Positions 19,997 through 62,253 of a stretch of DNA of 64,000 bases are shown in pieces. The notes below the pieces were generated by a model. The model saw nothing but the letters and a program-made list of their open reading frames with translations, ran no database searches and was not told the origin of the DNA. Every line of letters starts with the position of its first letter. The stretch's first letter is position 1. Made by a program: the position numbers and the translations under genes. Origin of the DNA: Patescibacteria group bacterium (lineage in GTDB: Bacteria > Patescibacteriota > Patescibacteriia > UBA1558 > GWA2-36-10); NCBI GenBank assembly GCA_041662585.1, contig JBAZSG010000002.1, positions 13,588 to 77,587 on the forward strand, written 5' to 3'.

Positions 19997-20950
19997 ATGA
20001 AAAAATTATTTTCCGGTATCAAGCCAACAGGCAAAATTCATCTAGGCAACTATCTAGGAGCTTTAAAAAATTGGATAGATTTACAAGATAAATATACCTG
20101 CCTTTACTCTGTTGTAGATATGCACGCTTTGACTATAAACATTGGCCCTGATGAACTACGTGCCAATAGTATGCAAGTCGCTATAGACCTTTTGGCCTTG
20201 GGCATTGATCCCAAAAAATCTATCTTTTTCCGTCAATCTGATGTCATTGGACATACTGAACTAGCTTGGATATTTAATTGTCTTACCCCTATTTCTGAGC
20301 TAGAAAGAATGACTCAGTTTAAAGATGAATCAAAAAGTCACTCTGACAATGTCAATGCTGGTCTACTTACTTATCCTACTCTGATGGCGGCTGATATTTT
20401 ACTCTATCAAGCTGAAAATGTACCAGTGGGAGAAGACCAATTACAACATTTGGAACTAGCACGTATTATTGCTAGAAAATTTAACAATCGTTATCAAAGA
20501 TACTTTCCTGAAACCAAAGCCATCATATCTCCAGCTAGACGAGTAATGTCTCTCAAATATCCTAATAAAAAAATGAGCAAATCTCATGGTGAGGCAAGTT
20601 ACATTGCTATCCGAGATGATGAAGGCACTGTAAATAAAAAAATAAAAAAAGCAGTCACTGACAATCAAGGTATTTTAAATTTACTAGAGCTATATTCATA
20701 TTTTGGTGATCAAGATAAATATGAAAAAATGATGACCTTACACAAAACTAATAAACTAATGAGTCTACAACTAAAAGAAGAGTTGACCAAAGTTATATTA
20801 GAATTTCTAAGGCCTGTTCAGGAAAAAATAGCCTATTATGAAAATAATAAATCTAAAGTAGAGCTTATACTCCATGAAGGTGCCAAAAAAGCTCAAAGAA
20901 TAGCTGATCAAACCATGACTCAAGTCAAACAACTAATTGGTTTAAAATAG
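19997..20950 (+). CDS. trpS: Tryptophan--tRNA ligase
   Basis: MKKLFSGIKPTGKIHLGNYLGAL is the class I HIGH-type motif. KMSKS is present. 317 aa, typical TrpS length. Confidence 0.85.
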   Translation: MKKLFSGIKPTGKIHLGNYLGALKNWIDLQDKYTCLYSVVDMHALTINIGPDELRANSMQVAIDLLALGIDPKKSIFFRQSDVIGHTELAWIFNCLTPISELERMTQFKDESKSHSDNVNAGLLTYPTLMAADILLYQAENVPVGEDQLQHLELARIIARKFNNRYQRYFPETKAIISPARRVMSLKYPNKKMSKSHGEASYIAIRDDEGTVNKKIKKAVTDNQGILNLLELYSYFGDQDKYEKMMTLHKTNKLMSLQLKEELTKVILEFLRPVQEKIAYYENNKSKVELILHEGAKKAQRIADQTMTQVKQLIGLK

Positions 20951-20960
20951 TTAAATAAAA

Positions 20961-20986
20961 ATCCAGCCCCTCGCGAGGGGCTGGAT
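20961..20986 (-). terminator. GC hairpin terminator (U-tail on minus strand) for the dehydrogenase gene; also closes trpS
   Basis: atccagcccctcg-cgaggggctggat, with the T-run on the minus strand. Confidence 0.7.
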
Positions 20987-20995
20987 AAAAAAATA

Positions 20996-22048
20996 TTATT
21001 TTGTCTTGACCTCGTTGATTATTGTTTTTTTCTGACAACAAGCCATTACATTTTCTATCGTCGTATCCAAAATTCTCTCTAGCGCTTCTTGACTATTAAA
21101 AGCATTGTGCGGAGTGACAATCACTTTATCAGAAATAAGCAGCATATGACCCTCAACAATGGTTTGTAAATAATTATTAATATTTTCTTTGCTCTTGCTA
21201 GCAAAATGGGGTGATAAAAGCTCAGCTTCTTCTTTTAAAATATATTTTTCCTCTTCCAAAACATCCAGACCAATGCCAGCCAATTTACCACTACGCAAGC
21301 CATCTACTAAGGCTGTAGTATCTATCAAGCCACCTCTAGCTGTATTGATAATCATAGCTTCTGACTTGATGAGTTTGATATTTTTTCTATTTATCAAATG
21401 GTGAGTCGCTTTATTATATGGCGCATGCAAAGATATAATATCAGATTTTTTTAACAAAACATCTAAAGTAGCATATTTAAAACCCAATCTCTTGGCTAGC
21501 TTGGCGTCTCTTTTTACATCATAGGCCAAAACATGCATACCAAACCCTTTAGCAATGCGGATAACATGCTGACCAATATGACCAGTACCCACGATACCAA
21601 TCGTCTTATCACGAAGATCAAAACCACGCAGACCATCTAAAGAAAAATTACCCCTAGATGTCCGCTCGTATGATTGATGAATTTTACGAGACAAAGATAA
21701 TATCAAGGCAAAGGTATGTTCAGCAACTGTGTTGGCGCCATAGCTAGGTACATTGGCTACTTTGACACCAGCTTGTTTGGCCGCTTTGAGATCAATATGA
21801 TCAAAACCTGTAGATCTGGTACTAATCAATTTTAAGTTTGGTAATTCCTCCATCACGGCCTTGCTTACTTTGGAATATATAAAAGGAGATAGCACATCAA
21901 CATCTTCAATATACTTCAAGTTTTTTTTATCAATTACATTATCAAAAAAATAAAGCTTAAAACCTTTTAAAGCTTTTTGTAAATATTCTTTCTCCCACTG
22001 CTCTACTTCAAAAAAGGCGACTTTTGTTTTTTGCTTTATTTTTGTCAT
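20996..22048 (-). CDS. D-isomer-specific 2-hydroxyacid dehydrogenase family (D-lactate/phosphoglycerate dehydrogenase-like)
   Basis: GIVGTGHIGQHVIRIAKGFGMHVLAYD is the NAD-binding Rossmann motif. Catalytic R/E/H region: NTARGGLID...TPHNA. Confidence 0.8.
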   Translation of the reverse strand: MTKIKQKTKVAFFEVEQWEKEYLQKALKGFKLYFFDNVIDKKNLKYIEDVDVLSPFIYSKVSKAVMEELPNLKLISTRSTGFDHIDLKAAKQAGVKVANVPSYGANTVAEHTFALILSLSRKIHQSYERTSRGNFSLDGLRGFDLRDKTIGIVGTGHIGQHVIRIAKGFGMHVLAYDVKRDAKLAKRLGFKYATLDVLLKKSDIISLHAPYNKATHHLINRKNIKLIKSEAMIINTARGGLIDTTALVDGLRSGKLAGIGLDVLEEEKYILKEEAELLSPHFASKSKENINNYLQTIVEGHMLLISDKVIVTPHNAFNSQEALERILDTTIENVMACCQKKTIINEVKTK

Positions 22049-22060
22049 ATATATTATATA

Positions 22061-22864
22061 TTATTTTAATTTAATATTTTGTGATTTAATTTTTTTACCC
22101 AAAAATTTTTGAGCAGCTTTATCAAATTTTGCGCTATTACCAGTTGTTAAAAATAGCTTACTTGGTTTTTTGGATGGCTGATTATATTCTGGATGCCTAC
22201 TTATATAATCTACCAATTTATCAGCTATAATCTGTCCACTGGTTAATACTACCACTTCTTTACCAAAACTTTTGGCTATCATTTCTTGAAGCCAACCATA
22301 GTGAGTACAACCCAAAACCACTGCATCCAAATTGGCTCTCTTAAGTGTTTTGATATACTCTGTCAAAATTATTTGAGTCTCTGGCATATTTTCACGCGAC
22401 TCTTCAATCAAAGGAACAAGTAGTGGGCAAGCCTGTTGAATAACGTGAATATTTCTATTTATACTTGAAAACTCATTGATATAAGCCTGAGAATCAACGG
22501 TGCTAGTTGTAGCCATTACTCCTATTTTGGCATTTTTATCCAAGTCTGCATAGGCTTCTACCAAAGGTCTGATGACTCCCAAAACATTTCTACCTGGATA
22601 TTTATTTGGCAAATATTCTTGTTGCAATTTTCGAAGAGCCATAGCCGAGGCCGTATTACAGGCAAATATTATCAATTTACAATTTCGGGAAAACAAATAA
22701 TCCACTGCTTCCTGACTATATTTGTATATCAATTTTTGGCTCTTGTCTCCATAGGGAGATCTGGCATTGTCTCCTAAATAAATATAATCGTATTGCGGTA
22801 ATGTTTTCTCAATATCCTTAAAAATACTAAGTCCTCCATAACCAGAATCAAATATTCCAATCAT
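22061..22864 (-). CDS. murI: Glutamate racemase
   Basis: MIGIFDSGYGGLSI...IFACNTASA...VLGCTHY. Confidence 0.85.
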   Translation of the reverse strand: MIGIFDSGYGGLSIFKDIEKTLPQYDYIYLGDNARSPYGDKSQKLIYKYSQEAVDYLFSRNCKLIIFACNTASAMALRKLQQEYLPNKYPGRNVLGVIRPLVEAYADLDKNAKIGVMATTSTVDSQAYINEFSSINRNIHVIQQACPLLVPLIEESRENMPETQIILTEYIKTLKRANLDAVVLGCTHYGWLQEMIAKSFGKEVVVLTSGQIIADKLVDYISRHPEYNQPSKKPSKLFLTTGNSAKFDKAAQKFLGKKIKSQNIKLK

Positions 22865-24267
22865 TATTGTTTTCTTTCTTTGAAATCTATTAAACTTTCT
22901 AATTCTTTTATTTTATCATCTAAAGTTTTTTTGGACTTGGCTTCAACTGTCAGTCTAAGTAATGGTTCGGTACCAGATGGACGAACATTAAACCACCAAT
23001 CTGAAAATTCTACAGTAATACCATCTATCTCATCTAAAATATTTTCCCCGTATTCATTTCTAAATTTTGCCATTTCCAAATCTCTGTCTTCTACTACAAA
23101 ATTTAATTCCTCACTCTTGTGATAAAGAGTATATTCTTTAATAATTTCTGAAACTGGACGACCATCTTGAGAAATAGCCTCTAGACTCAAAACCATAGCA
23201 ATAAAAGCACTGTCAGCATAGTAATTGTCTTTGAAAGCAAAATGAGCTGAAACTTCACCACTCATGATACCACCTTCTTCTCTCATATGACGAGCCAAAT
23301 TCATATAGCCAACTTCACTGCGTATAGCTTTGCCTCCCCATTTGTTTATAAGATCTTTTACTGAATGACTAGCAATCAAATTGTAGACAATGCCAGCGCC
23401 GGGATTTTTATCAAGTATAGCTTTGACCATTGGCAACATGGTCATATCTCCTTTGTAAAAAGTCCCTTGCTCATCTAGCAAATTTATCCTGTCGCCATCT
23501 ACATCACAAATAAAGCCCAAATCAGCACCTAGTTCTTTTATTTTGATAGCTAGTTTATCTGATGCTCCTTTGGTCAAAGGATTTGGAGGTCGATTTGGAA
23601 AATTGCCATCTGGATCAGTAAATATAAAAGTGGCCTGACAAGAAAGTTTGTTTAAAATTTCCTTCATCATTTTACCATTCATACCATTGCCAATATCAAT
23701 GACCACTTTGAGTGGTTTTACTTTTTTTGTATCTACAAAACTCAACACATGTGCTACATGATCTTCTATAATATCTTTTTTGATTATTTTGCCGTCTGTC
23801 TGCTCATCACTAATAGGAAAATCCAAATCTTTCATATATTGCAAAAGCTCCTTGCCTGACACAAAATCAATACTGTCAGCATATTGCAAGTTGCTATAAG
23901 CTAGCTTGCAACCACCATATTCTGGTGGATTGTGAGAAGCAGTAGCCATAAAACCACCATTATACTTGTACTTACCAACCGCAAAATAATAATCGTTTAT
24001 TGATAGCAAGCCTAGATCATAAATAGTAACTCCATATCTTAAAAAAATTTTAATTGCCTCATCAAGCAATGGTTTAGAAGAAATTCTTGCATCACTACAA
24101 ATCGCGATGCTCAATTCTTTGATGGGCTTGCCAATTTTCTCAGATAAAAATTTGAGATAAGCTTGGGCTATCAAATTCATAGCTTGCTCATTGATCTGAG
24201 TAGGGTAAATACCCCTAAAATCATAGGACTTAAAAATACTAAGATCCAAATCTTTAGAATATTCCAT
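22864..24267 (-). CDS. Phosphoglucomutase/phosphomannomutase family (alpha-D-phosphohexomutase)
   Basis: ATASHNPPEYGG (active-site Ser loop), DVDGDR metal-binding loop, 467 aa. Confidence 0.8.
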   Translation of the reverse strand: MEYSKDLDLSIFKSYDFRGIYPTQINEQAMNLIAQAYLKFLSEKIGKPIKELSIAICSDARISSKPLLDEAIKIFLRYGVTIYDLGLLSINDYYFAVGKYKYNGGFMATASHNPPEYGGCKLAYSNLQYADSIDFVSGKELLQYMKDLDFPISDEQTDGKIIKKDIIEDHVAHVLSFVDTKKVKPLKVVIDIGNGMNGKMMKEILNKLSCQATFIFTDPDGNFPNRPPNPLTKGASDKLAIKIKELGADLGFICDVDGDRINLLDEQGTFYKGDMTMLPMVKAILDKNPGAGIVYNLIASHSVKDLINKWGGKAIRSEVGYMNLARHMREEGGIMSGEVSAHFAFKDNYYADSAFIAMVLSLEAISQDGRPVSEIIKEYTLYHKSEELNFVVEDRDLEMAKFRNEYGENILDEIDGITVEFSDWWFNVRPSGTEPLLRLTVEAKSKKTLDDKIKELESLIDFKERKQ

Positions 24268-25400
24268 TATTTTATTTCTTTACTGTTTTTAAATAAACTA
24301 TAAATACTACCCCAAGCCATCAAATATAAAATAGCTATGACCAAAGGTCCCAAATAAGGCAACTTGGCTATCAAAATATAAAGTAAAATACCAAAAGCCA
24401 AAACAAATAAATTGGACCATTTGTATTTAGCCAAAAATTTATGCTTGACAAAGCTACCCAAAATCCAAGCTGCAAAAATACAAGCAAAATACATAGCTAG
24501 TCCCCACAAAACCATGAGTACGATAGCTATTGGTATACCAATAAAAGTAATGGCCAATAAAATACAAAATATAGGTGTAAGTAGTAAAAGTCCAAAACCT
24601 TGAAAAAAACTAGCTAGTGGTTTTTTATAAACCCTCTGATAAGCCGTGGCAAAAACACTAGGCCACATATATAAAATCACCATACCTAATGTCAACATAC
24701 CAAAAAACTTTATCAGCAATCCAAATGCCCGAGCACTACTTTTATCTTCTTTGGTTTTTTTAATTATTTCATTAAAAGAAACATTGCCAATAGCCGCCTT
24801 AGAATTTATTTCTACTTTTTTGAGCGCCTGATAATACAAAGTACCATTGATGACAGCATCATCTGAAATATTGATAGCGTCTTTTACTGGCTGGGTTAAA
24901 TAAATATCAGCATCGTTGTTTACTGTGCCACTAAGTCGCAAACTAGAAAAGGCTCCTTCCAAACTACCTACTTGACCAGCGACATTTAAAGCTTGCCCCC
25001 AAAAAGTTAAGTGTCCAGCCAATTTGGAATCAGCATCTACCCTAAAATTTTGACCAGCCACCATAGCATTTTTAGTGACTTCTCCTATAAAATCAATGTT
25101 TGTACCAGCTAGTCGCAAAGAACCATTTATTTTGCCCTTGATAGTAATATTGCTACCAGCGGCAAAAATGTCTCCATTGATATTTTCTGAATCAATTACT
25201 ATGGTATTGCCAGCCACAAAAACATCACCATTGACTGTACCATTTATTTCGACTGTATTACCAGCCGCATAATAATTACGATTTATTACTTGGTCTTTTT
25301 CCAAAACAACAAAATTATCATTGTGAGCTGTAAGAGCCAAAGCAGAGCTTGGTAAAACTACAAAAATAGCCAATAAAACCCATTTAAATTTTTTGAACAT
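24267..25400 (-). CDS. Exported beta-helical (bactofilin/DUF583-like repeat) protein anchored by C-terminal transmembrane helices
   Basis: Signal peptide, then repeated ..G.V.I.G.VNGDVFVAGNTIVID.. units, followed by 4 C-terminal transmembrane helices. Confidence 0.4.
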   Translation of the reverse strand: MFKKFKWVLLAIFVVLPSSALALTAHNDNFVVLEKDQVINRNYYAAGNTVEINGTVNGDVFVAGNTIVIDSENINGDIFAAGSNITIKGKINGSLRLAGTNIDFIGEVTKNAMVAGQNFRVDADSKLAGHLTFWGQALNVAGQVGSLEGAFSSLRLSGTVNNDADIYLTQPVKDAINISDDAVINGTLYYQALKKVEINSKAAIGNVSFNEIIKKTKEDKSSARAFGLLIKFFGMLTLGMVILYMWPSVFATAYQRVYKKPLASFFQGFGLLLLTPIFCILLAITFIGIPIAIVLMVLWGLAMYFACIFAAWILGSFVKHKFLAKYKWSNLFVLAFGILLYILIAKLPYLGPLVIAILYLMAWGSIYSLFKNSKEIK

Positions 25401-25477
25401 AAACTTAAACTTAATAATTATGTGTACATTTTAACATAATAATTAGTAAAAATACAATAATTTGTTATAATATAAGC

Positions 25478-26089
25478 ATGAAGAAATTACTACAAATAAT
25501 CAGCTATTATCTAATACCTTTGGTATTACTATTACTTACTTTTGGCATCCCTAGTAGATCTTTATTTGGGCTATTTGGTAATACAGCTCTATATCTCCTA
25601 ATTTTTACTTTGTTCTTAAAACCCATTGCCAAAATATCAGATATCAAGTTTTTGAAACATCTATTGATATATAGAAGACAATTTGGGATTGCTAGTTTTT
25701 GGTTTTTTGCTTTTCATGCGATAGGCATGTGGCAAATATATCAACTAATCAATATAGAGTTTTATCTAGACCCAAAAACAAATTTATTCTATGGAGCTCT
25801 AGCAGCGATTTGTATGATTGTTTTGGGGATGACTTCCAATACATTGGCTGTCAAAAAACTGAAAAAAAATTGGAAACGTATTCAATATATTGCTTACCCA
25901 ACTTTATTTTTGGCTCTTTATCATAGAGCATTGTTTGAGGGTGACACTACTAATTTTTATATCCTATCTGGACTTTTTATATTACTAAAAATACTAGAAT
26001 GGAATAAAATAAATATTAATGCTTTTAAAAAAAATAAAATGCCAGATTTAAACGAAGAAGAAAAAAGAGTAATTATAGATAAAAAATAA
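25478..26089 (+). CDS. Ferric-reductase-like transmembrane heme-b protein (MsrQ/YedZ-like)
   Basis: RRQFGIASFWFFAFHAIGMW...YIAYPTLFLALYHRAL: conserved His pairs in transmembrane helices, as in the YedZ/MsrQ family. Confidence 0.5.
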   Translation: MKKLLQIISYYLIPLVLLLLTFGIPSRSLFGLFGNTALYLLIFTLFLKPIAKISDIKFLKHLLIYRRQFGIASFWFFAFHAIGMWQIYQLINIEFYLDPKTNLFYGALAAICMIVLGMTSNTLAVKKLKKNWKRIQYIAYPTLFLALYHRALFEGDTTNFYILSGLFILLKILEWNKININAFKKNKMPDLNEEEKRVIIDKK

Positions 26090-26091
26090 AC

Positions 26092-26766
26092 TTATTTTGA
26101 TTTTCTGACAAAAGCATTGATGTTCCACTCTGTGTGATATACTCCCTCTGGTTCTAAATCAAAATGAGTTTTTTTAAGTAGCGCTACTAGCTCTCCCGTA
26201 CTAAAACTATGATAATATCTCCAAACTGTATGTCCATTGTCAGTTGTCCAAGGAATAAAAAAATCATTCCAAGATTTCTTTGACCAAAATTTTTCTATAG
26301 CATAACGCCAGTATTTTTTTTGCCACAAATTCCAATTGGTCATAAAAAGCAGACCACCTGGCTTGAGCCAACGATTGGCCTTAAACAGTAAATCCAATCT
26401 TTCTTCTTTACTTGGTAAATGATGAAATGAAGCAACCATAAATATCATATCAAAAGTATTGGCTGCAAAAGATAAATCAGACATATCAGCTACTACAAAT
26501 TTTGACCGAGGATGATCTTGTCTAGCTTGAGCTATGAGCTTTTCAGAAAAATCTACTCCCAAATAATTGAGCTTTTTGTCAGCTTGTTCTAAAGATTTAA
26601 GAAGTCTACCATTGCCACAACCAAGGTCCAGTATCTTGAAATTATCCTTTATGTGTGGTATAAAGACTTGTAACTCTTTCCAAGGATAAGCGCGCGTTGC
26701 TGAAAACTCAAGCGCTATATCATTGTAGAGTAAACGTAAATCATTTTTTATTTTTTCACCTTTCAT
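26092..26766 (-). CDS. Trm9-like class I SAM-dependent methyltransferase (tRNA cm5U34 carboxyl methyltransferase-like)
   Basis: YNDIALEFSATRAYPWKELQVFI resembles the Trm9 N-terminal motif (Y.EIA.HFS.TR..PW). Motif I is ILDLGCGNGRLL; FMVASFHHLPSKEERL resembles Trm9 VVHHWSTRERR; GGLLFMTNWNLWQ resembles Trm9 GGQALIYCWALEQ. Confidence 0.65.
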   Translation of the reverse strand: MKGEKIKNDLRLLYNDIALEFSATRAYPWKELQVFIPHIKDNFKILDLGCGNGRLLKSLEQADKKLNYLGVDFSEKLIAQARQDHPRSKFVVADMSDLSFAANTFDMIFMVASFHHLPSKEERLDLLFKANRWLKPGGLLFMTNWNLWQKKYWRYAIEKFWSKKSWNDFFIPWTTDNGHTVWRYYHSFSTGELVALLKKTHFDLEPEGVYHTEWNINAFVRKSK

Positions 26767-28378
26767 GAATACAAAAGAAACTAATATTTTAGATAAAATT
26801 GTACTAGAATTATATACCTATAAAAATTCTAGCGAACTTGAATTTGTCAAAGCTCTACGTCAAGTATTTTCTCGTCATAAGATGACTCCCTCTAGTAAAG
26901 CTAAACTTATTGTAGCATATAAAAATTTGATTAAAAAGGGTAAATTAAAGAAAGATCAAAACTTTGAAAAACTACTGGTCAAAAGAGCAGTACGTACTAT
27001 GAGTGGTGTATCAGTGATTACTGTGCTGTCCAAACCCTTTGTTTGTCCAGGAAAATGTGTCTATTGTCCTACTGAGCCAGATATGCCAAAAAGCTACTTG
27101 TCCAATGAGCCAGCTGCAGCTCGTGCCAAAATGAATCTTTTTGATCCAATACGACAAGTCAATATGCGTATCAAAGCTCTAGAAAACAATGGTCACCAAG
27201 TAGATAAACTGGAGCTACTTATACTAGGTGGAACTTGGTCCGTTTATCCTGAAAAATATCAGAGAGATTTTGTTCGTGATCTTTTTTATGCGGCCAATGT
27301 ATTTGGCAAAAGAGGTCGAAAAAGAAAACCTCTATCTCTGGCCGAAGAGCAACTTATAAATGAAGCTACAAAATATAAGATAATTGGTCTGACTCCTGAA
27401 ACTAGACCTGACTATATAAACGAGCATGAAATAAAAAGAATGAGAGAGCTGGGTGCTACTCGTGTCCAAATTGGCGTACAGCATACAGACAATAAAATAT
27501 TAGATTTGATAGTCCGGGGGCATAGTATTGAACAATCTATCAAAGCTACCAAAATGCTAAAAGAAGTGGGTCTTAAAGTAGATCATCACTATATGCCTGA
27601 TTTACCAGGCTCAACACCTAAAAAAGACTTAGAAATGATGAAATATGTCTATAGCTCTCCTGACTTGCAACCAGATCAAATAAAAATCTATCCTTGTATC
27701 GTCAATGAATATGCCGAATTAAACAAATGGTATCAAGAGGGTAAGTACAAACCCTATTCAGCCAAACAATTATTGAATCTATTATTAAAAATAAAGGCCC
27801 TTACTCCTCCTTGGATTAGAATAAATAGATTGATAAGAGACATACCAGAAGAAAGTATTATTGCTGGAAATAGTATTACCAACTTGCGTCAATATTTACA
27901 AAGTGAATTAAAAAAACAAGGCAAGTCCTGTCAGTGCCTACGCTGTCGTGAAGTCCGAGATGATAATATAGAAGGAGAAGAAGTGATATTAGTAAAAAGA
28001 GAATACCGTGCTTCTGATGGTGATGAAATATTTATTTCTTTTGAAGCAAAAGATAATTCTAAACTTTATGCTTTTTTAAGATTGCGTTTCAATGATAACC
28101 CAACAACCAATATATTTGCTGAGCTCAAAAAGGCATCATTGGTCAGAGAATTGCATGTCTATGGTAAAATGATTCCTACTTATAGTGAAGAGCAAGATGA
28201 TGAAATATCCCAAACCCAACATATGGGTTTTGGAAAAAAATTAATGGCTGAAGCAGAAAAAATCACTCAAGAGCGAGGTCTCAATAAAATAGCTGTTATC
28301 TCTGGTATTGGCGTTAGAAACTACTATAAAAAACTTGGCTATAAACTAGAAGGTACATATATGACCAAAAAGTTATAA
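26765..28378 (+). CDS. elp3: Elongator protein 3 homolog (radical-SAM plus GNAT), tRNA wobble U34 carboxymethylation
   Basis: SGVSVITVLSKPFVCPGKCVYCPTEPDMPKSYLSNEPAAARAKMNLFDPIRQV...LILGGTWS...ETRPDY align closely with eukaryotic/archaeal Elp3 (radical-SAM CX4CX2C cluster). A C-terminal GNAT domain is present. Confidence 0.85.
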   Translation: MNTKETNILDKIVLELYTYKNSSELEFVKALRQVFSRHKMTPSSKAKLIVAYKNLIKKGKLKKDQNFEKLLVKRAVRTMSGVSVITVLSKPFVCPGKCVYCPTEPDMPKSYLSNEPAAARAKMNLFDPIRQVNMRIKALENNGHQVDKLELLILGGTWSVYPEKYQRDFVRDLFYAANVFGKRGRKRKPLSLAEEQLINEATKYKIIGLTPETRPDYINEHEIKRMRELGATRVQIGVQHTDNKILDLIVRGHSIEQSIKATKMLKEVGLKVDHHYMPDLPGSTPKKDLEMMKYVYSSPDLQPDQIKIYPCIVNEYAELNKWYQEGKYKPYSAKQLLNLLLKIKALTPPWIRINRLIRDIPEESIIAGNSITNLRQYLQSELKKQGKSCQCLRCREVRDDNIEGEEVILVKREYRASDGDEIFISFEAKDNSKLYAFLRLRFNDNPTTNIFAELKKASLVRELHVYGKMIPTYSEEQDDEISQTQHMGFGKKLMAEAEKITQERGLNKIAVISGIGVRNYYKKLGYKLEGTYMTKKL

Positions 28379-28462
28379 ACTTTGACAAAAACTATAAAAT
28401 ATAATTAAATAGCCTAGCTATATAAGTACAATACAATAATTTAAAACTCATGGAGGAGAATT

Positions 28463-28900
28463 TTGCTAATATTTTATCGCTGGTCTCAACTGAGCTTTGA
28501 TCACAAACAGGACTTTCTCAACTACCTGAGAATCCTGTGTGAGCGAAAGCTCATAGCTGGAAAAAGAATAAGGCTTTTTGAAGCCATCTGTATTCCAGCC
28601 TTGGCCAATGCTGATGGCGAAATCAGCGACACCATGGACACCTACAACCAGGTAGCTCAATACGGCGTTCGGCTGTACCAGCTAAACGACCTACTGGCCA
28701 TGTACTATCAAGAACTCCACTGGCCGGTCAGCGTCAAAAAGGCTGCCCAGTACTTGGGCCTCTCGGACAGATATGTCCGAGAACTGGCCAAACGAGGCAT
28801 CCCCCATTTGGATGCCACTCTCAAAAAAGGTCGCTGGTGCATCAACCTGGTTTCAGCCAGTGATTGGCTGATTCGCCACCATAAGGTGCATATAGCCTAA
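28463..28900 (+). CDS. Helix-turn-helix (excisionase/AlpA-like) DNA-binding protein, encoded in a GC-rich islet
   Basis: The C-terminal VSVKKAAQYLGLSDRYVRELAKRGIPHL...GRWCI is an excisionase-family HTH. Local GC is about 45-55% against about 33% in flanking DNA. Confidence 0.55.
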   Translation: MLIFYRWSQLSFDHKQDFLNYLRILCERKLIAGKRIRLFEAICIPALANADGEISDTMDTYNQVAQYGVRLYQLNDLLAMYYQELHWPVSVKKAAQYLGLSDRYVRELAKRGIPHLDATLKKGRWCINLVSASDWLIRHHKVHIA

Positions 28901-28920
28901 ATTAAATGGCTACCCAACCA

Positions 28921-28957
28921 AAAACCCGTCCCGAGCATAGTCGAGGGACGGGTTTTA
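28921..28957 (+). terminator. Rho-independent terminator after the HTH gene
   Basis: cccgtccc-gagcatagtcga-gggacggg-tttt. Confidence 0.8.
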
Positions 28958-29018
28958 TATTAATTTGTAAAAAAAATACAGTATGCTAAACTAATAGCAT
29001 TATTAATGCCTTAAAAAA

Positions 29019-30281
29019 ATGTCTAAATTAAATAATCAAGACCCTCAAATTTATAAAATATTGACTCAAGAATTAGAACGCCAAAGACAAGGCGCTGAAA
29101 TGATAGCTTCAGAAAATTTTGTATCTTTGGCAGTACTAGAAGCAACTGGGTCAGTCTTGACCAATAAATACGCCGAAGGCTACCCAGCTAAAAGATATTA
29201 TGGTGGCAATGAATTTATTGACCAGTCTGAACAACTAGCTATAGATCGTGCCAAAAAACTTTTTAAAGCAGAGCATGTCAATGTCCAACCTCATGCTGGT
29301 TCTCAGGCCAATATGGAAGCCTATTTTGCCTTGGCCAATTTGGGTGATACTATATTGGGATTTTCTCTGGCTCATGGTGGTCACCTGACACATGGTCATC
29401 CGGTCAATTTTTCTGGCAAATTTTATAACTTTGTTAGCTATGGTGTTGATAAAAAAACTGAGCGTATAGATATGGACGAAGTACGAGCACAAGCTATCAA
29501 GCACAAGCCAAAAATAATCTTAGCTGGAGCTTCTGCCTATTCAAGAAAAATAGATTTCAAAGCTTTCCGAGCTATAGCCGATGAAATTAATGCTTATTTT
29601 ATGGTGGACATGGCCCATATTGCAGGACTGGTAGCTGTTGGACTTCACCCTGATCCAATACCCTATGCTGATGTAGTGACTACTACTACTCACAAAACAC
29701 TGCGTGGTCCTCGTGGTGCAATGATTCTTTCTAAAATTAAAGACCGATTAGATCCTGCTGGCAAAAAAAATCTAGCGCAAAAAATAGACAGCGCTATTTT
29801 TCCTGGTATGCAAGGTGGCCCACTAGAACACATCATAGCTGCTAAAGCGGTCGCTTTTGGAGAAGCCTTAAAACCAGAATTTAAAAACTATCAACAACAA
29901 GTTATAGCTAATTGCAAAACTCTAGAAAATAAATTTAGAGCAGCTGGCATACGTATGATTTCAGATGGTACAGACAATCATTTACTCATGATCGATGTAA
30001 CTACGCTGGGTTTGTCGGGTAAAGAGGCTGAAAATTTACTAGATAATGTACATATTTTTACCAATAAAAATATGATTCCCTATGACCAGCGTTCTCCTAT
30101 GGATCCATCTGGTATCAGACTAGGGACTGCTGCTCTCACTACTAGAGGATTAAAAGAAGAAGCTATTAATACTGTAGCTGATATATTGATTGACACTTTA
30201 AAAACTAAAAAAGCAACCGATAAAAATAAACAGCAGATAGTAAATTTAATGAAACAATTTAAACTATACCCTGAACTATAA
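29019..30281 (+). CDS. glyA: Serine hydroxymethyltransferase
   Basis: IASENFVS...[15 protein letters not shown]...[13 protein letters not shown]: PLP-lysine region. Confidence 0.95.
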
Positions 30282-38828: not shown

Positions 38829-38898
38829 CATCCCGCCTTTGGCGGGATCAAGAATTCGTAACTACTTAGACTTCGTCTTCGTAGACGAATTCTTGATA
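38829..38898. terminator. Two adjacent hairpins between convergent genes (atcccgcc-ttt-ggcgggat; tcaagaattcgt-N25-acgaattcttga)
   Basis: 8-bp and 12-bp perfect stems. Convergent 3' ends of the module and queA. Confidence 0.6.
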
Positions 38899-39914
38899 AA
38901 CATGGCGTCACCAAAAGAAAAAAATCTATATTTTAACTTGATAGCTTTTTTATAAGCCTTTAAAATAAATTCTCTGCCAGCCAGAGCTGAGACCATAAAG
39001 AGCAGGGAGCTTTTTGGTAAGTGAAAATTGGTAATCAAATCATCGACAAACTTGTATTTATAACCTGGATAAATATAAATATCCACCCATTTAGAACCTG
39101 CCTTTAATTTACCAGATTTATCACTAAAAGCTTCTAGTGTTCTAGCACTGGTAGTGCCAATTGCTATTATATTTTTACCCTGCTTTTTTAGTTTATTTAA
39201 ATTATTAGCCGTACGCTTACTGATACTAGCCCACTCATGATGAATCTGATGTTTTGAAATGTCTTCTACTTCTACTGGCGCAAAAGTGCCCAGTCCAACA
39301 TGAAGTGTCACTTTAAATACTTTGATTTTTTTCTTTGCTAATTTATCTAAAATAGTTTTTGTAAAATGAAGGCCGGCTGTTGGCGCCGCTGCAGATCCAG
39401 ATGACTTGGCATAAACTGTTTGGTAATCTTTCTTAATACTTTTACTATCTTTAGTTTTAATATATGGAGGCAGTGGCGTATGACCAATGGCTTCTATAAT
39501 ATTTTCTAATTTCTTATTAGCTAAATTAAATTTTATTTGCTTGATTTTACCATCTATATTATCAATTATTTTGGCCTCTAATTTTTTACCAAAATATATT
39601 GTATCGCCTATTTTAATATTTCTTCCTCCGATCATAGCCAAGTAATATCCTCTGGCTTGCTGCTCAATTAATAATAGCTCTACTTTGCCTCCAGTTTTTT
39701 TGTGTCCATAGAGCCTAGCTGGAAAAACTTTGCTTTCATTGACTACCAAAACATCATTGGCCGTAAGATAGTCTGGTAAATCATAAAAATGTTTATGAGT
39801 TATTTTTTGTTTACTGCTATCCAATAGCAAAAGCCGCGAATGGTCTCGCGGTTTTATTTGCTTTTGAGCTATCAGCTCATGAGGTAAATGATAATCAAAA
39901 AGATTAATTTTCAT
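38862..39914 (-). CDS. queA: S-adenosylmethionine:tRNA ribosyltransferase-isomerase
   Basis: MKINLFDYHLPHELIAQKQIKPRDHSRLLLLD... Confidence 0.85.
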   Translation of the reverse strand: MKINLFDYHLPHELIAQKQIKPRDHSRLLLLDSSKQKITHKHFYDLPDYLTANDVLVVNESKVFPARLYGHKKTGGKVELLLIEQQARGYYLAMIGGRNIKIGDTIYFGKKLEAKIIDNIDGKIKQIKFNLANKKLENIIEAIGHTPLPPYIKTKDSKSIKKDYQTVYAKSSGSAAAPTAGLHFTKTILDKLAKKKIKVFKVTLHVGLGTFAPVEVEDISKHQIHHEWASISKRTANNLNKLKKQGKNIIAIGTTSARTLEAFSDKSGKLKAGSKWVDIYIYPGYKYKFVDDLITNFHLPKSSLLFMVSALAGREFILKAYKKAIKLKYRFFSFGDAMFIKNSSTKTKSK

Positions 39915-40473
39915 GTTGTCTAATTTTTTTTCTATCGCTAGCTATTTTAGAATAAATACAACCACAATAATCTTGTCTATAAAACCCTTCATCTTTGCTC
40001 ATCTGAGCCGCTATCTTAAAACCATCATTTTTCTTCCAATCAGCTTCTAAAAATTTGCTATCGTGCAATCTAGCTAGCTTGTTGGCTACCATATTAATTT
40101 GACTAGCATCTTTGTGTGGAGATATACTCATGACAGTTGTCCAAAAGTCATAACCTTCTGCTTTGGCCTTTTTAGCTGTTTCGTTTAAACGAATATCAAA
40201 ACAGACTTCACACCTCTTGCCTTTTTCTAGTTCATTTTCTAGACCTCGGGTTTTGTCTATCCAATTGACACTATCATATTCGCCTTCCATAAAATCAACA
40301 CCAATTTTTTTAGCATAAGCCTTCATTTCATCACGACGCTTTATATATTCAAGACGAGGATGAATATTTGGATCATAAAAAAATATACTTAGCTCATAAT
40401 CTTTGGCTAATTTTCTCAATACATATATTGAGCAAGGTGCACAACATGAATGTAAAAGTAATCTAGGTTGCAT
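39904..40473 (-). CDS. queH: Epoxyqueuosine reductase QueH (DUF208)
   Basis: LLLHSCCAPCS signature and downstream Cys residues. 189 aa. Confidence 0.8.
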   Translation of the reverse strand: MQPRLLLHSCCAPCSIYVLRKLAKDYELSIFFYDPNIHPRLEYIKRRDEMKAYAKKIGVDFMEGEYDSVNWIDKTRGLENELEKGKRCEVCFDIRLNETAKKAKAEGYDFWTTVMSISPHKDASQINMVANKLARLHDSKFLEADWKKNDGFKIAAQMSKDEGFYRQDYCGCIYSKIASDRKKIRQHEN

Positions 40474-53949: not shown

Positions 53950-54267
53950 CTATACAAATCGACTAGCAAAAAATATAGCTGTAGCCAGACCGATAAACCA
54001 AAGCAGTGCCGACGCTACTGATTGGCCAAATTTTTTGCGCCGACTAGACACTTCGCTTCTACCAAGAACTCTTTTGTTCTTTGAGGCAAAACTAGTGCCT
54101 TCACCACTGTTTAGTGTGAATATATGAAGTGGTGGTTTTTTGAGTCTTTCTTGTTGGCCATTATACTTTAATGGTCTTTTGGTTTTTATGGCTACCAACA
54201 CAAACAAAGCCAAAAGGCCAAAAATAATGGCTATAGCTTGAAAGTCCATACCTGCAAAAAACTTCAT
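53950..54267 (-). CDS. Small 2-transmembrane-helix membrane protein (105 aa)
   Basis: ORF with two hydrophobic helices and a basic central loop. About 330 bp of unusually GC-rich noncoding DNA lies upstream. Confidence 0.4.
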   Translation of the reverse strand: MKFFAGMDFQAIAIIFGLLALFVLVAIKTKRPLKYNGQQERLKKPPLHIFTLNSGEGTSFASKNKRVLGRSEVSSRRKKFGQSVASALLWFIGLATAIFFASRFV

Positions 54268-60020: not shown

Positions 60021-60443
60021 TTAATTTATTGTTATTTTTCGTTTATTATCTTTTAATAATTCTATATTTATCTTGATAGCTCTATCTGGCAAACTTCTCA
60101 ATTTATCAGCCCATTCTATGGCTACTATTATATTATCATGAATTAGATAATCCTCTAAACCAATTTCCAACAAATCTTCCCGTCTGTATAAACGATAACA
60201 ATCAACATGCACAAATTTATTTATTTTTGCTTTTTTCAAATCATAGACTTTCATTAATACAAAAGTCGGACTAGTAATATTTTCCTTAATCCCCAAAGCC
60301 TTGGCTAGAGCTTGGACAAAAACTGTTTTGCCAGCTCCTAGATTTCCACTCAGAGCCAAAAGCTCACCACCTTTTAGATTTTTGGCTAATTTGGTGGCTA
60401 TAGCTTCTGTTTCTCTTTGATTATTAACTAAATATTCTGGCAT
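60021..60443 (-). CDS. tsaE: tRNA threonylcarbamoyladenosine biosynthesis protein TsaE
   Basis: LALSGNLGAGKTVFVQALAKALGI...TSPTFVLMKVY. Confidence 0.8.
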   Translation of the reverse strand: MPEYLVNNQRETEAIATKLAKNLKGGELLALSGNLGAGKTVFVQALAKALGIKENITSPTFVLMKVYDLKKAKINKFVHVDCYRLYRREDLLEIGLEDYLIHDNIIVAIEWADKLRSLPDRAIKINIELLKDNKRKITIN

Positions 60444-60450
60444 TATTTAA

Positions 60451-61503
60451 TTATATTTTATTTTTGCTTAATTGCCAATTAGAACGAGGTTGTAAATCAA
60501 ATACTTTATCACCTTTTAAAATATCTCCTGTTTTGCTAAATATATTATAATAAGCAGCTGTAGCTATCATAGCTGCATTATCTCCAGTATATTTTAAGTC
60601 TGGATAGAAAAAAGGTAGCTTAATTTTTTTACTTTCTTTAATTAAAGCTTTTTTTAATTCTGTATTAGCTGCTACCCCTCCGGCAATCATAATAGATTTT
60701 ACATTATGTTCTCTAGCCGCTTTAATAGTCTTTTTAAGTAAGACTTCTATCACGGCGTTCTGAAATGAAGCGCATAGATCATTGATATCTTGCTTGGTGA
60801 TATTTTTCTTTTTTTCTAGTGTATAGAGGACTGCGGTCTTCAGCCCTGAAAAAGAAAAATTATAATTTTGTTTATCAATCATTGGACGAGGAAAATCATA
60901 AGCTTGTTTGTCACCTTGCTCGGCTAGACGACTGACAATTGGCCCACCTGGATATCCCAATCCAAGTAACTTGGCTACTTTATCATAGGCCTCTCCCACA
61001 GCATCGTCTAAGGTTTGCCCAATTAATTTATATTGTCCATAACCTTTCATTAATACTAGCTCCGTATGACCACCAGATACTACCAGCACCAAAGCTGGTA
61101 AATATTTTTTAGTATTTTTTGCTAATTTGCTATTGGACAGCCAATTAGAATAAATATGTCCTTCTATATGATTTACTGCGACCAAAGGTAAATTGTTGGT
61201 AAAGGCTAAAGTTTTGGCTGTAGCCATACCCAATATCAGAGAAGTGATGAGCCCTGGTCCACTAGTCACAGCTATATAATCCATATTTTTTAGTTTATTT
61301 TTGCCTAAAACATTATCCACAAGTGGAATAATGGTTTCGACGTGCTTGCGAGCTGCTAGCTCTGGTACTACCCCGCCATATTTTTTATGAATATCAATCT
61401 GAGAATATACTAGGTTTTTCTGCAATTTTAAAGAATGTCCACTGGCTTCTAAAATAGCAATGGCTGTCTCGTCACATGATGATTCTATGGCTAGTATTTT
61501 CAT
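60451..61503 (-). CDS. tsaD: tRNA N6-adenosine threonylcarbamoyltransferase TsaD (Kae1/YgjD)
   Basis: MKILAIESSCDETAIAIL...NHIEGHI...SGGHTEL. Confidence 0.9.
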   Translation of the reverse strand: MKILAIESSCDETAIAILEASGHSLKLQKNLVYSQIDIHKKYGGVVPELAARKHVETIIPLVDNVLGKNKLKNMDYIAVTSGPGLITSLILGMATAKTLAFTNNLPLVAVNHIEGHIYSNWLSNSKLAKNTKKYLPALVLVVSGGHTELVLMKGYGQYKLIGQTLDDAVGEAYDKVAKLLGLGYPGGPIVSRLAEQGDKQAYDFPRPMIDKQNYNFSFSGLKTAVLYTLEKKKNITKQDINDLCASFQNAVIEVLLKKTIKAAREHNVKSIMIAGGVAANTELKKALIKESKKIKLPFFYPDLKYTGDNAAMIATAAYYNIFSKTGDILKGDKVFDLQPRSNWQLSKNKI

Positions 61504-61611: not shown

Positions 61612-62253
61612 ATGTCCAGACAAAAATTAAAAAAATTTGCTGAGCTTGATAAATTTGCTAATGTCGCTCAATTTAATCGGCCTGATATAAAAAATAAACT
61701 AAATGATTTTTTACTTGGAAAGCACCAAATTATTTTGGAATTGGGCTGTGGCAGAGGTGAATATTCATTGGCTTTGGCCAAAAAAGAAAAAACAGCAAAA
61801 ATTGTCAGCATAGATATTCAAGGCGAAAGACTGTGGGCCGGAGCTAGACAAGCTCAAATAGAAAAACTAGACAATATATTATTTCTAAGAATTCAAATTG
61901 AAGATTTGCTAGAATACTTCTTCCCAAAATCTATTACTGAAATTTGGATTACTTTTCCTGATCCATATCCACGCGACAAACAAATAAAAAAAAGACTTAC
62001 CTCGCCTAGATTTTTAGATGTTTATAAAAAGATATTAATAAACAATGCTGTCCTTCATCTTAAAACCGATGACTTGAATTTGTTTGATTATTCTATAGAA
62101 AGCATAATAAATCATAAAGGCAAAATAATAAAAAAAATAAAAAATATATATAAAGCTAAAAATATTCCCAAAATACTAAAAATTAAAACCGAGTTTGAAA
62201 AAAAACATTTAAAAGCTGGAAAAACTATTAACTACCTAAAATTTAGTCTGTAA
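61612..62253 (+). CDS. trmB: tRNA (guanine-N7)-methyltransferase
   Basis: ILELGCGRGEYSLALAKKEKTAKIVSIDIQGERL...ITFPDPYP. Confidence 0.8.
   Translation: MSRQKLKKFAELDKFANVAQFNRPDIKNKLNDFLLGKHQIILELGCGRGEYSLALAKKEKTAKIVSIDIQGERLWAGARQAQIEKLDNILFLRIQIEDLLEYFFPKSITEIWITFPDPYPRDKQIKKRLTSPRFLDVYKKILINNAVLHLKTDDLNLFDYSIESIINHKGKIIKKIKNIYKAKNIPKILKIKTEFEKKHLKAGKTINYLKFSL

Follow-up and report, generated by a model that had tools for sequence, protein, structure and literature searches.

The formation of 5-carboxymethyluridine at the tRNA wobble position (cm5U34) from acetyl-CoA by radical chemistry has been shown for archaeal Elp3, and the eukaryotic and archaeal forms of Trm9, the methyltransferase that esterifies cm5U to 5-methoxycarbonylmethyluridine (mcm5U), require the partner protein Trm112. 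Among the archaea, the genes for Elp3 and Trm9 cluster in Sulfolobus solfataricus (PMC2584109), the Haloferax volcanii Trm9 orthologue HVO_1032 has been validated as a Trm112 partner (PMC6144793), and mcm5U itself is documented in H. volcanii (PMC7663514). As for bacteria, a 2017 review of Trm112 reported no gene resembling the Trm112-dependent methyltransferases and placed Trm9 orthologues in the Sulfolobales and Halobacteriales only (PMC5372719), a 2020 review of Elongator placed bacterial Elp3 in Dehalococcoides only (PMC7663514), and a 2026 paper speaks of Elp3 in “numerous bacteria”. Here we describe a gene pair in a 64,000-nucleotide stretch (the window) of contig JBAZSG010000002.1 from a Patescibacteria group bacterium (assembly GCA_041662585.1), where a gene encoding Elp3 stands head to head with one encoding a Trm9-like methyltransferase dependent on S-adenosylmethionine (SAM). 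Judging from the sequences, it is likely that this Elp3 makes cm5U34 and that the methyltransferase esterifies it to mcm5U34. In the literature searched, we found nothing that ties Elp3 or Trm9 to Patescibacteria, the candidate phyla radiation (CPR) or Chloroflexota.

As genes, both stand well beyond chance, Elp3 with E 4.7e-161 on NCBIfam TIGR01211 and the methyltransferase with homologues numbering 1158 at E<=1e-5. Every targeted test of the methyltransferase's family points to Trm9. Its best sequence match in the PDB by phmmer is the Yarrowia (Yl) Trm9 chain 5cm2_Z (E 1.3e-16), aligned over amino acids 23-198 and so beyond the Rossmann core, and a profile made from 28 family sequences returns the same chain at the top (105.6 bits, positions 23-220), followed by 3sm3 (90.5 bits) and by phosphoethanolamine methyltransferases (83 bits). 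When the AlphaFold (AF2) model of the protein, with a mean predicted local distance difference test score (pLDDT) of 91.6, was searched with Foldseek, 5cm2_Z again came first (E 2e-15; template modelling score, TM, 0.83 normalised to the target). The fold search was rejected as a sole discriminator, since it barely separates Trm9 from the class I methyltransferase 3sm3.

Reciprocal profile searches, which had been proposed as a check in the initial annotation of this locus, favour Trm9 over generic methyltransferases in both directions. For these, named fungal Trm9 proteins were collected with the Yarrowia sequence into a hidden Markov model (HMM), and the outgroup enzymes CmoM (SmtA), UbiE, UbiG, BioC and Tam were taken from the E. 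coli K-12 genome. On the fungal Trm9 HMM, the window protein reaches 104 bits and its bacterial relatives 50-114, compared with 26.5 for 3sm3 and 5-10 for each of the five from E. coli; on the HMM of the bacterial family, fungal Trm9 reaches 101-134 bits and the E. coli enzymes 26-47, such that the gap between Trm9 and the E. coli enzymes varies from 55 to >90 bits with the direction of the search. Aligned profile to profile with hhalign, the bacterial family and fungal Trm9 match with 99.95% probability (E 1.8e-38) over 208 columns, at an identity of 27-31% between the window methyltransferase and the fungal proteins. Two more specific identities were considered and rejected: CmoM, which scores 36.5 bits with the A1 profile, 25.8 with the A2 profile and 5.5 on the fungal Trm9 HMM, as against ~104 for Trm9 and the window protein, and a UbiE-type enzyme, against which the profile scores likewise speak.

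The residues on which Trm9 depends have been mapped in yeast. Létoquart et al. found that alanine mutants of R29, D72, H116, W145, W168, R241, Y243 and N271 in the Saccharomyces cerevisiae enzyme (ScTrm9) have their activity abolished or strongly reduced, and these residues have been proposed to position the cm5U carboxylate (R29 being among those that do so), to stack on U34 (W145) and to read the uracil (N271) (PMC4678810). All eight are matched in the window protein, by R25, D47, H116, W145, W173, R183, Y185 and N215. Counted among 272 family sequences, W145 is present in every one (272/272) and R25 in every one that aligns there (264/264), while D47 is kept in 269, H116 and R183 in 268 each, an aromatic residue at W173 in 268, Y185 in 235, and N215 in 231 of the 246 aligned. 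The equivalence of N215 with ScN271 is supported by the family-profile alignment and by hhalign; hmmalign places N215 two residues off. Of the three motifs from which the initial annotation had recognised Trm9, HHLPSKEER is present as described, whereas the other two needed correction: Y.EIA reads Y-N-D-I-A in YNDIALEFSATRAYPW, and the spacing given as GG-x4-W is GG-x6-W-x-L-x-Q in GGLLFMTNWNLWQ.

If the two proteins act in one pathway, then their genes might be expected to travel together, and co-occurrence is indeed what is seen, always in divergent orientation. With the window Elp3 as the query, a scan of GTDB at one genome per species yielded 47 loci, nearly all from Patescibacteria (with Komeili-, Nomura-, Buchanan-, Falkow-, Peregrini- and Gracilibacteria and Parcubacteria labels). 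The earlier description of Elp3 as sporadic in bacteria does not hold for Patescibacteria, where it is common, one clade of it having no adjoining methyltransferase. Within the closer Elp3 clade (>=46% identity), the methyltransferase lies upstream on the opposite strand in 28/28 loci with enough upstream DNA, at a distance of <=240 bp in 24 and of 1.4-2.8 kb in 4. Look-ups that started from the methyltransferase (exact protein) found a divergent Elp3 adjoining it in 5/6. A metagenome scan gave 80 loci, with Elp3 in 53 of them, none in 10 that have >=700 bp of upstream sequence, and 17 that are too short, which makes 53/63 assessable loci paired. The pairing is retained down to ~30% methyltransferase identity, in the Anaerolineales (Chloroflexota), where a subfamily with the motifs W-Q-F, LDW and RYVHH, often named TRM9 by JGI (L128, L131-L136, L138, L140), is divergent to Elp3 save at L135, where the 4 kb upstream contain no Elp3. 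Patescibacteria are thus not the only bacteria with the gene pair. In four metagenome relatives, whose sequences have a haloarchaeal look, the gene does not adjoin Elp3. Two local peculiarities were also noted in these loci. At L024 (9152-9870), the Trm9-like gene beside Elp3 is split into two open reading frames (ORFs) by a frameshift or an assembly error, and at L058 (929-2339) an RVT_1 reverse transcriptase and a bAvd gene, the signature of a diversity-generating retroelement, lie beside Elp3.

Both ORFs were found in the window where the initial annotation had placed them, and they are divergent as it had said, but their start codons are not 2 bp apart. Instead, the two codons share 2 nt within a CATG: its CAT is the methyltransferase ATG read on the other strand, and its ATG starts Elp3. 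This overlap is identical in the window and in 12 more loci (L001-L003, L005-L013) despite diverged flanks; the junction reads CATATG (gap 0) in L015 and CAT-A-ATG (gap 1) in L004. A downstream start for Elp3 at M40 was considered and ruled out by the conservation of the N-terminus at the protein level together with the CATG junction in the 12 other loci. Being head to head with overlapping starts, the two genes are kept together and are probably also expressed together.

A shared CATG implies either that each promoter lies inside the coding region of the partner or that the mRNAs are leaderless. Scans for sigma-70 promoters and for terminators around the pair returned a number of sites not above that in shuffled sequence. 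Across the window, just 2/51 genes have a Shine-Dalgarno-like motif, and in many genes a TATAAT-like box stands 5-10 nt ahead of the ATG (e.g., those at 25478, 31680, 32614 and 60451). The sequence thus suggests that leaderless or very-short-leader mRNAs are widespread in this genome, and leaderless or near-leaderless mRNAs would account for a start site common to two genes.

The 537-aa protein is, by its sequence, a clear member of the Elp3 family. It matches NCBIfam TIGR01211 at 536.8 bits against a cutoff of 350 (E 4.7e-161; profile positions 26-522 of 522) and carries the Pfam domains Radical_SAM (60.7 bits), Radical_SAM_C and Acetyltransf_1 (23.3 bits, cutoff 20.7); in the PDB, it matches Elp3 of M. 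infernus at E 1.5e-117, Elp3 of D. mccartyi at E 2e-110, and yeast, mouse or human Elongator structures at E ~1e-93. The radical-SAM cysteine triad, the ligand of the [4Fe-4S] cluster, is in place. So are the three cysteines of the Zn motif that bacterial and archaeal Elp3 typically have (PMC6367351), and the N-terminus carries a basic extension of the kind that has a role in tRNA binding (PMC6367351).

On the strength of family membership, the first step of the proposed pathway would be carried out by Elp3, which would use a SAM-derived 5′-deoxyadenosyl radical and acetyl-CoA to place a carboxymethyl group on C5 of U34, giving cm5U34. In the second step, predicted from orthology, conserved active-site residues and synteny, the Trm9-like enzyme would methylate the carboxylate with SAM to give mcm5U34. 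Going by what is proposed for yeast Trm9, the carboxylate would be positioned by R25 and H116, W145 would stack on the base, H115 and N215 would read the uracil, and D47 would bind SAM. A later 2-thiolation to mcm5s2U is possible. The pair could be imagined to act instead on a protein or on some other RNA, with no wobble pathway at all, given that Elp3 was once proposed to be a protein acetyltransferase and that tRNA data are absent for all Elp3-carrying bacteria (PMC7663514). We consider this highly improbable: bacterial, archaeal and eukaryotic Elp3 hydrolyse acetyl-CoA specifically upon tRNA (PMC6367351), the window Elp3 is full-length and has the basic N-terminal tRNA-binding region, and its partner retains the residues proposed in yeast Trm9 to read the uracil and the cm5 carboxylate.

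A number of observations nonetheless weigh against the assignment of mcm5U34 formation to this pair, beginning with the methyltransferase family itself. Pfam returns the generic domains Methyltransf_25/11/31/12/23 and a weak Ubie_methyltran, the NCBIfam matches (BioC, Tam, UbiE and others) all fall below cutoff (59 vs. 155, 57 vs. 185, 56 vs. 297 and 47 vs. 216 bits), and neither database returned a Trm9-specific model, which is why the protein looks generic in both. By profile, 3sm3 is only 15 bits behind YlTrm9, and its Foldseek E-value is similar. In a neighbor-joining tree (Poisson and p-distances; Trm9 represented by fungal sequences), the bacterial family goes with fungal Trm9 and stands away from 3sm3 and the five E. 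coli methyltransferases, and so does not cluster with UbiE and SmtA, the outcome that the initial annotation had named as contrary to its proposal; at just 56-59/100 bootstraps, the tree agrees with a Trm9 affinity but does not decide it. As for public names, NCBI calls the protein “class I SAM-dependent methyltransferase” and some JGI records have UbiE for relatives. These database matches and names would suit a generic UbiE/SmtA/BioC-type enzyme for small molecules or lipids that lies beside Elp3 by chance, a reading to which we give next to no credence and which is largely refuted: the NCBIfam matches do not approach any equivalog cutoff, the fungal Trm9 HMM separates the protein from the E. 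coli enzymes, the Trm9 residues that lie outside the Rossmann core are kept (R25, W145, W173, R183-x-Y185 and N215), and the head-to-head synteny with Elp3 is held in two phyla. In the automatic annotation of IMG, TRM9 or ALKBH8 already appears as the name of some of these proteins, and with the chemistry already known, the novelty of a bacterial member of this pathway is limited.

On the same side of the balance stand 17 Elp3 loci (36-46% identity) with no such methyltransferase within 10 kb, so Elp3 is not always in need of one nearby. Sixteen of these have 36-41% identity (L027-L029, L031, L032, L034-L043, L045) and the other, L030, is from Chloroflexota (46%); most read better in genetic code 25 and are labelled Gracilibacteria or Peribacteria, while L027 and L030 do not read better in that code. 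A very basic ORF of ~112 aa, 0.6-2.6 kb upstream of Elp3, is common to 11 of the unpaired loci. To these are added the statement of the 2020 Elongator review that xcm5U derivatives are without evidence in bacteria (PMC7663514), and the presence in one clade of a TagA/WecG-type enzyme encoded after the methyltransferase or fused to it, which formation of mcm5U does not explain.

This last finding deserves a closer look. In every one of the 7 loci that bear a Peregrinibacteria, Peribacteria or Gracilibacteria label (L017-L021, L023, L046), the gene directly after that of the methyltransferase belongs to the WecG/TagA/CpsF family (glycosyltransferase family 26, GT26), and the same holds for L060, with a 4-nt overlap between the two ORFs. 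Among the best 150 cluster representatives, 5 (P0208, P0211, P0228, P0253, P0255) are fusions in which the methyltransferase carries GT26 at its C-terminus, with its Trm9 signature residues all or mostly retained. It could thus be envisioned that the methyltransferase is tied to Elp3 but that the end product is not simply mcm5U, being instead a longer or different wobble hypermodification, made for example by way of the TagA/WecG-like enzyme, or an amide or other derivative of the ester. The position of the fusion P0208, divergent to Elp3, would fit such a scheme, and work on yeast trm9 mutants hinted at extra steps around mcm5U and 5-carbamoylmethyluridine (ncm5U) (PMC3110198). We nevertheless regard it as unlikely, given that a WecG-like gene is missing from the window and from its close relatives, so this cannot be a general mechanism here; that lipid-linked sugars are the known substrates of GT26 enzymes, and by score the CPR proteins are ordinary members of that family (TIGR00696 at 144 bits; the TagA structure 7mpk at E 2e-43); and that fusion of adjacent unrelated genes happens in streamlined genomes. 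A broader picture, which as a whole seems to us quite unlikely, would have many Patescibacteria and some Anaerolineales possess a Trm112-free Elp3-Trm9 pathway of archaeal/eukaryotic type, maybe in replacement of MnmE/MnmG, with GT26 as a third component in the lineage labelled Peregrinibacteria/Peribacteria. If this were true, then the GT26, translationally coupled or fused to Trm9, would point to one more modification of the wobble side chain, as yet undescribed, or to a direct coupling of tRNA modification to cell-envelope synthesis. On MnmE/MnmG in CPR, the literature searched contained nothing relevant.

The formation of mcm5U by Elp3 and a Trm9-like enzyme remains the reading that we prefer, and it raises the matter of Trm112. 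A search for a Trm112/YcaR-like ORF, with E. coli YcaR as the phmmer query (best E>1) and with motif patterns, came up empty both in the window and across loci L001-L047. In YlTrm9, Trm112 buries six hydrophobic residues, two of which (V59 and F78) are polar or charged in the bacterial family: they are hydrophobic in all fungal sequences, and the bacterial enzymes have K/R at the former position (195/271) and D/E/N/K at the latter. From these features, it is predicted that the bacterial Trm9-like enzyme probably works without a Trm112 partner, as a soluble, stand-alone protein.

The window, whose G+C content is 28-42%, had been described as dense in genes for tRNA modification. QueA, TsaD, TsaE and TrmB exceed their NCBIfam cutoffs (Table 1), while the proposed queH (39904-40473) has no NCBIfam match. 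The region 19997-30281 is syntenic with L057, whose methyltransferase is 41% identical, and runs through TrpS, glutamate racemase, phosphoglucomutase/phosphomannomutase, a bactofilin-like DUF8173 protein, the methyltransferase, Elp3 and serine hydroxymethyltransferase (SHMT); compared with L057, the window has an extra gene for an MsrQ-like ferric-reductase membrane protein (25478-26089) between the bactofilin-like gene and the methyltransferase. Between Elp3 and glyA lies a putative ORF of 145 aa (28463-28900, + strand) with sub-threshold similarity to HTH_17/excisionase and a locally higher G+C of 0.39. Farther away, a c-di-GMP-II riboswitch (Rfam RF01786; 54375-54458, - strand; 68.4 bits vs. 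a gathering threshold of 53.5) lies upstream of a 105-aa ORF (53950-54267).

Table 1. Positions of the gene pair, its motifs and other features; coordinates refer to the window unless a locus is named, and Sc marks yeast Trm9 numbering.
Feature	Coordinates	Strand	Basis
Trm9-like SAM-dependent methyltransferase, 224 aa, predicted tRNA (carboxymethyluridine34-5-O)-methyltransferase	26092..26766	-	ORF, PDB, HMM and hhalign matches
Elp3, 537 aa, radical-SAM + KAT/GNAT, predicted cm5U34-forming	26765..28378	+	TIGR01211, Pfam, PDB
CATG, divergent ATGs overlapping by 2 nt	26764..26767	.	sequence
N-terminal Trm9 motif YNDIALEFSATRAYPW, aa 14-29, with Y14 (= ScY18) and R25 (= ScR29)	26680..26727	-	alignment
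SAM-binding motif I LDLGCGNG, aa 46-53; D47 = ScD72	26608..26631	-	alignment
HHLPSKEER, aa 115-123; H115 = ScH115, H116 = ScH116 (catalytic)	26398..26424	-	alignment
GGLLFMTNWNLWQ, aa 137-149; W145 = ScW145, Q149 = ScQ149	26320..26358	-	alignment
IPW (W173 = ScW168) to RYYH (R183 = ScR241, Y185 = ScY243)	26209..26256	-	alignment
C-terminal WNIN; N215, likely equivalent of ScN271	26116..26127	-	profile search to YlN222, hhalign
Elp3 radical-SAM triad C94-x3-C98-x2-C101 (CPGKCVYC)	27044..27067	+	translation; aligns with CPHGKCIFC of M. infernus Elp3 (MinElp3)
Elp3 three-cysteine Zn motif CQCLRC, aa 389-394	27929..27946	+	aligns to CRCIRC of MinElp3
Elp3 KAT-domain acetyl-CoA-binding motif QHMGFG, aa 485-490	28217..28234	+	motif, Pfam, PDB alignment
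Elp3 basic N-terminal extension, aa 1-75, 18 K+R vs. 7 D+E	26765..26989	+	composition; PDB alignments start at aa 68-73
QueA	38862-39914		above NCBIfam cutoff
TsaD	60451-61503		above NCBIfam cutoff
TsaE	60021-60443		above NCBIfam cutoff
TrmB	61612-62253		above NCBIfam cutoff
GT26 gene of L017	8274-9173		
GT26 gene of L019	2984-3766		
GT26 gene of L060	4654-5445		

The pair, seen in uncultivated Patescibacteria and Anaerolineales, predicts an mcm5U-type wobble modification in bacteria, and it has implications for the upkeep of decoding in CPR organisms, whose genomes are reduced. It turns the role of bacterial Elp3 into a question that can be put by expressing two genes, and it offers a small and probably Trm112-independent Trm9 for work on biochemistry and structure.

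Overall, the closest described relatives of the methyltransferase are yeast Trm9 and the methyltransferase domain of human ALKBH8 (with YlTrm9-Trm112, PDB 5CM2, as the reference), with which it shares the class I fold and the N-terminal helix motif Y..IA..FS.TR..PW. The homology to Trm9 runs over its full length, and it keeps the eight essential residues and is associated with Elp3. It departs from them in being bacterial and compact, its 224 aa lacking both the insertions of ScTrm9 and the extra domains of ALKBH8, in the head-to-head arrangement of its gene with that of Elp3, in having no Trm112 partner detected nearby, and in that its activity is predicted. The archaeal systems resemble the window in combining a prokaryotic stand-alone Elp3 with a Trm9 homologue, but archaeal Trm9 binds Trm112 (PMC6144793), whereas the bacterial enzyme is predicted to stand alone. 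A functional parallel is found in E. coli CmoM (SmtA), a class I methyltransferase that converts uridine 5-oxyacetic acid (cmo5U34) into its methyl ester (mcmo5U34) and thus also forms a SAM-dependent methyl ester on a wobble-uridine carboxylate; by profile scores, however, the window protein is from another family. The window Elp3, for its part, shares with the enzymes of D. mccartyi (DmcElp3, PDB 5L7J) and M. infernus (PDB 6IAZ) the radical-SAM and KAT architecture, the Zn cysteines and the acetyl-CoA motif. It comes from Patescibacteria, a lineage not treated in the Elongator literature searched, and its long basic N-terminus is of the archaeal type, that of DmcElp3 being much shorter.

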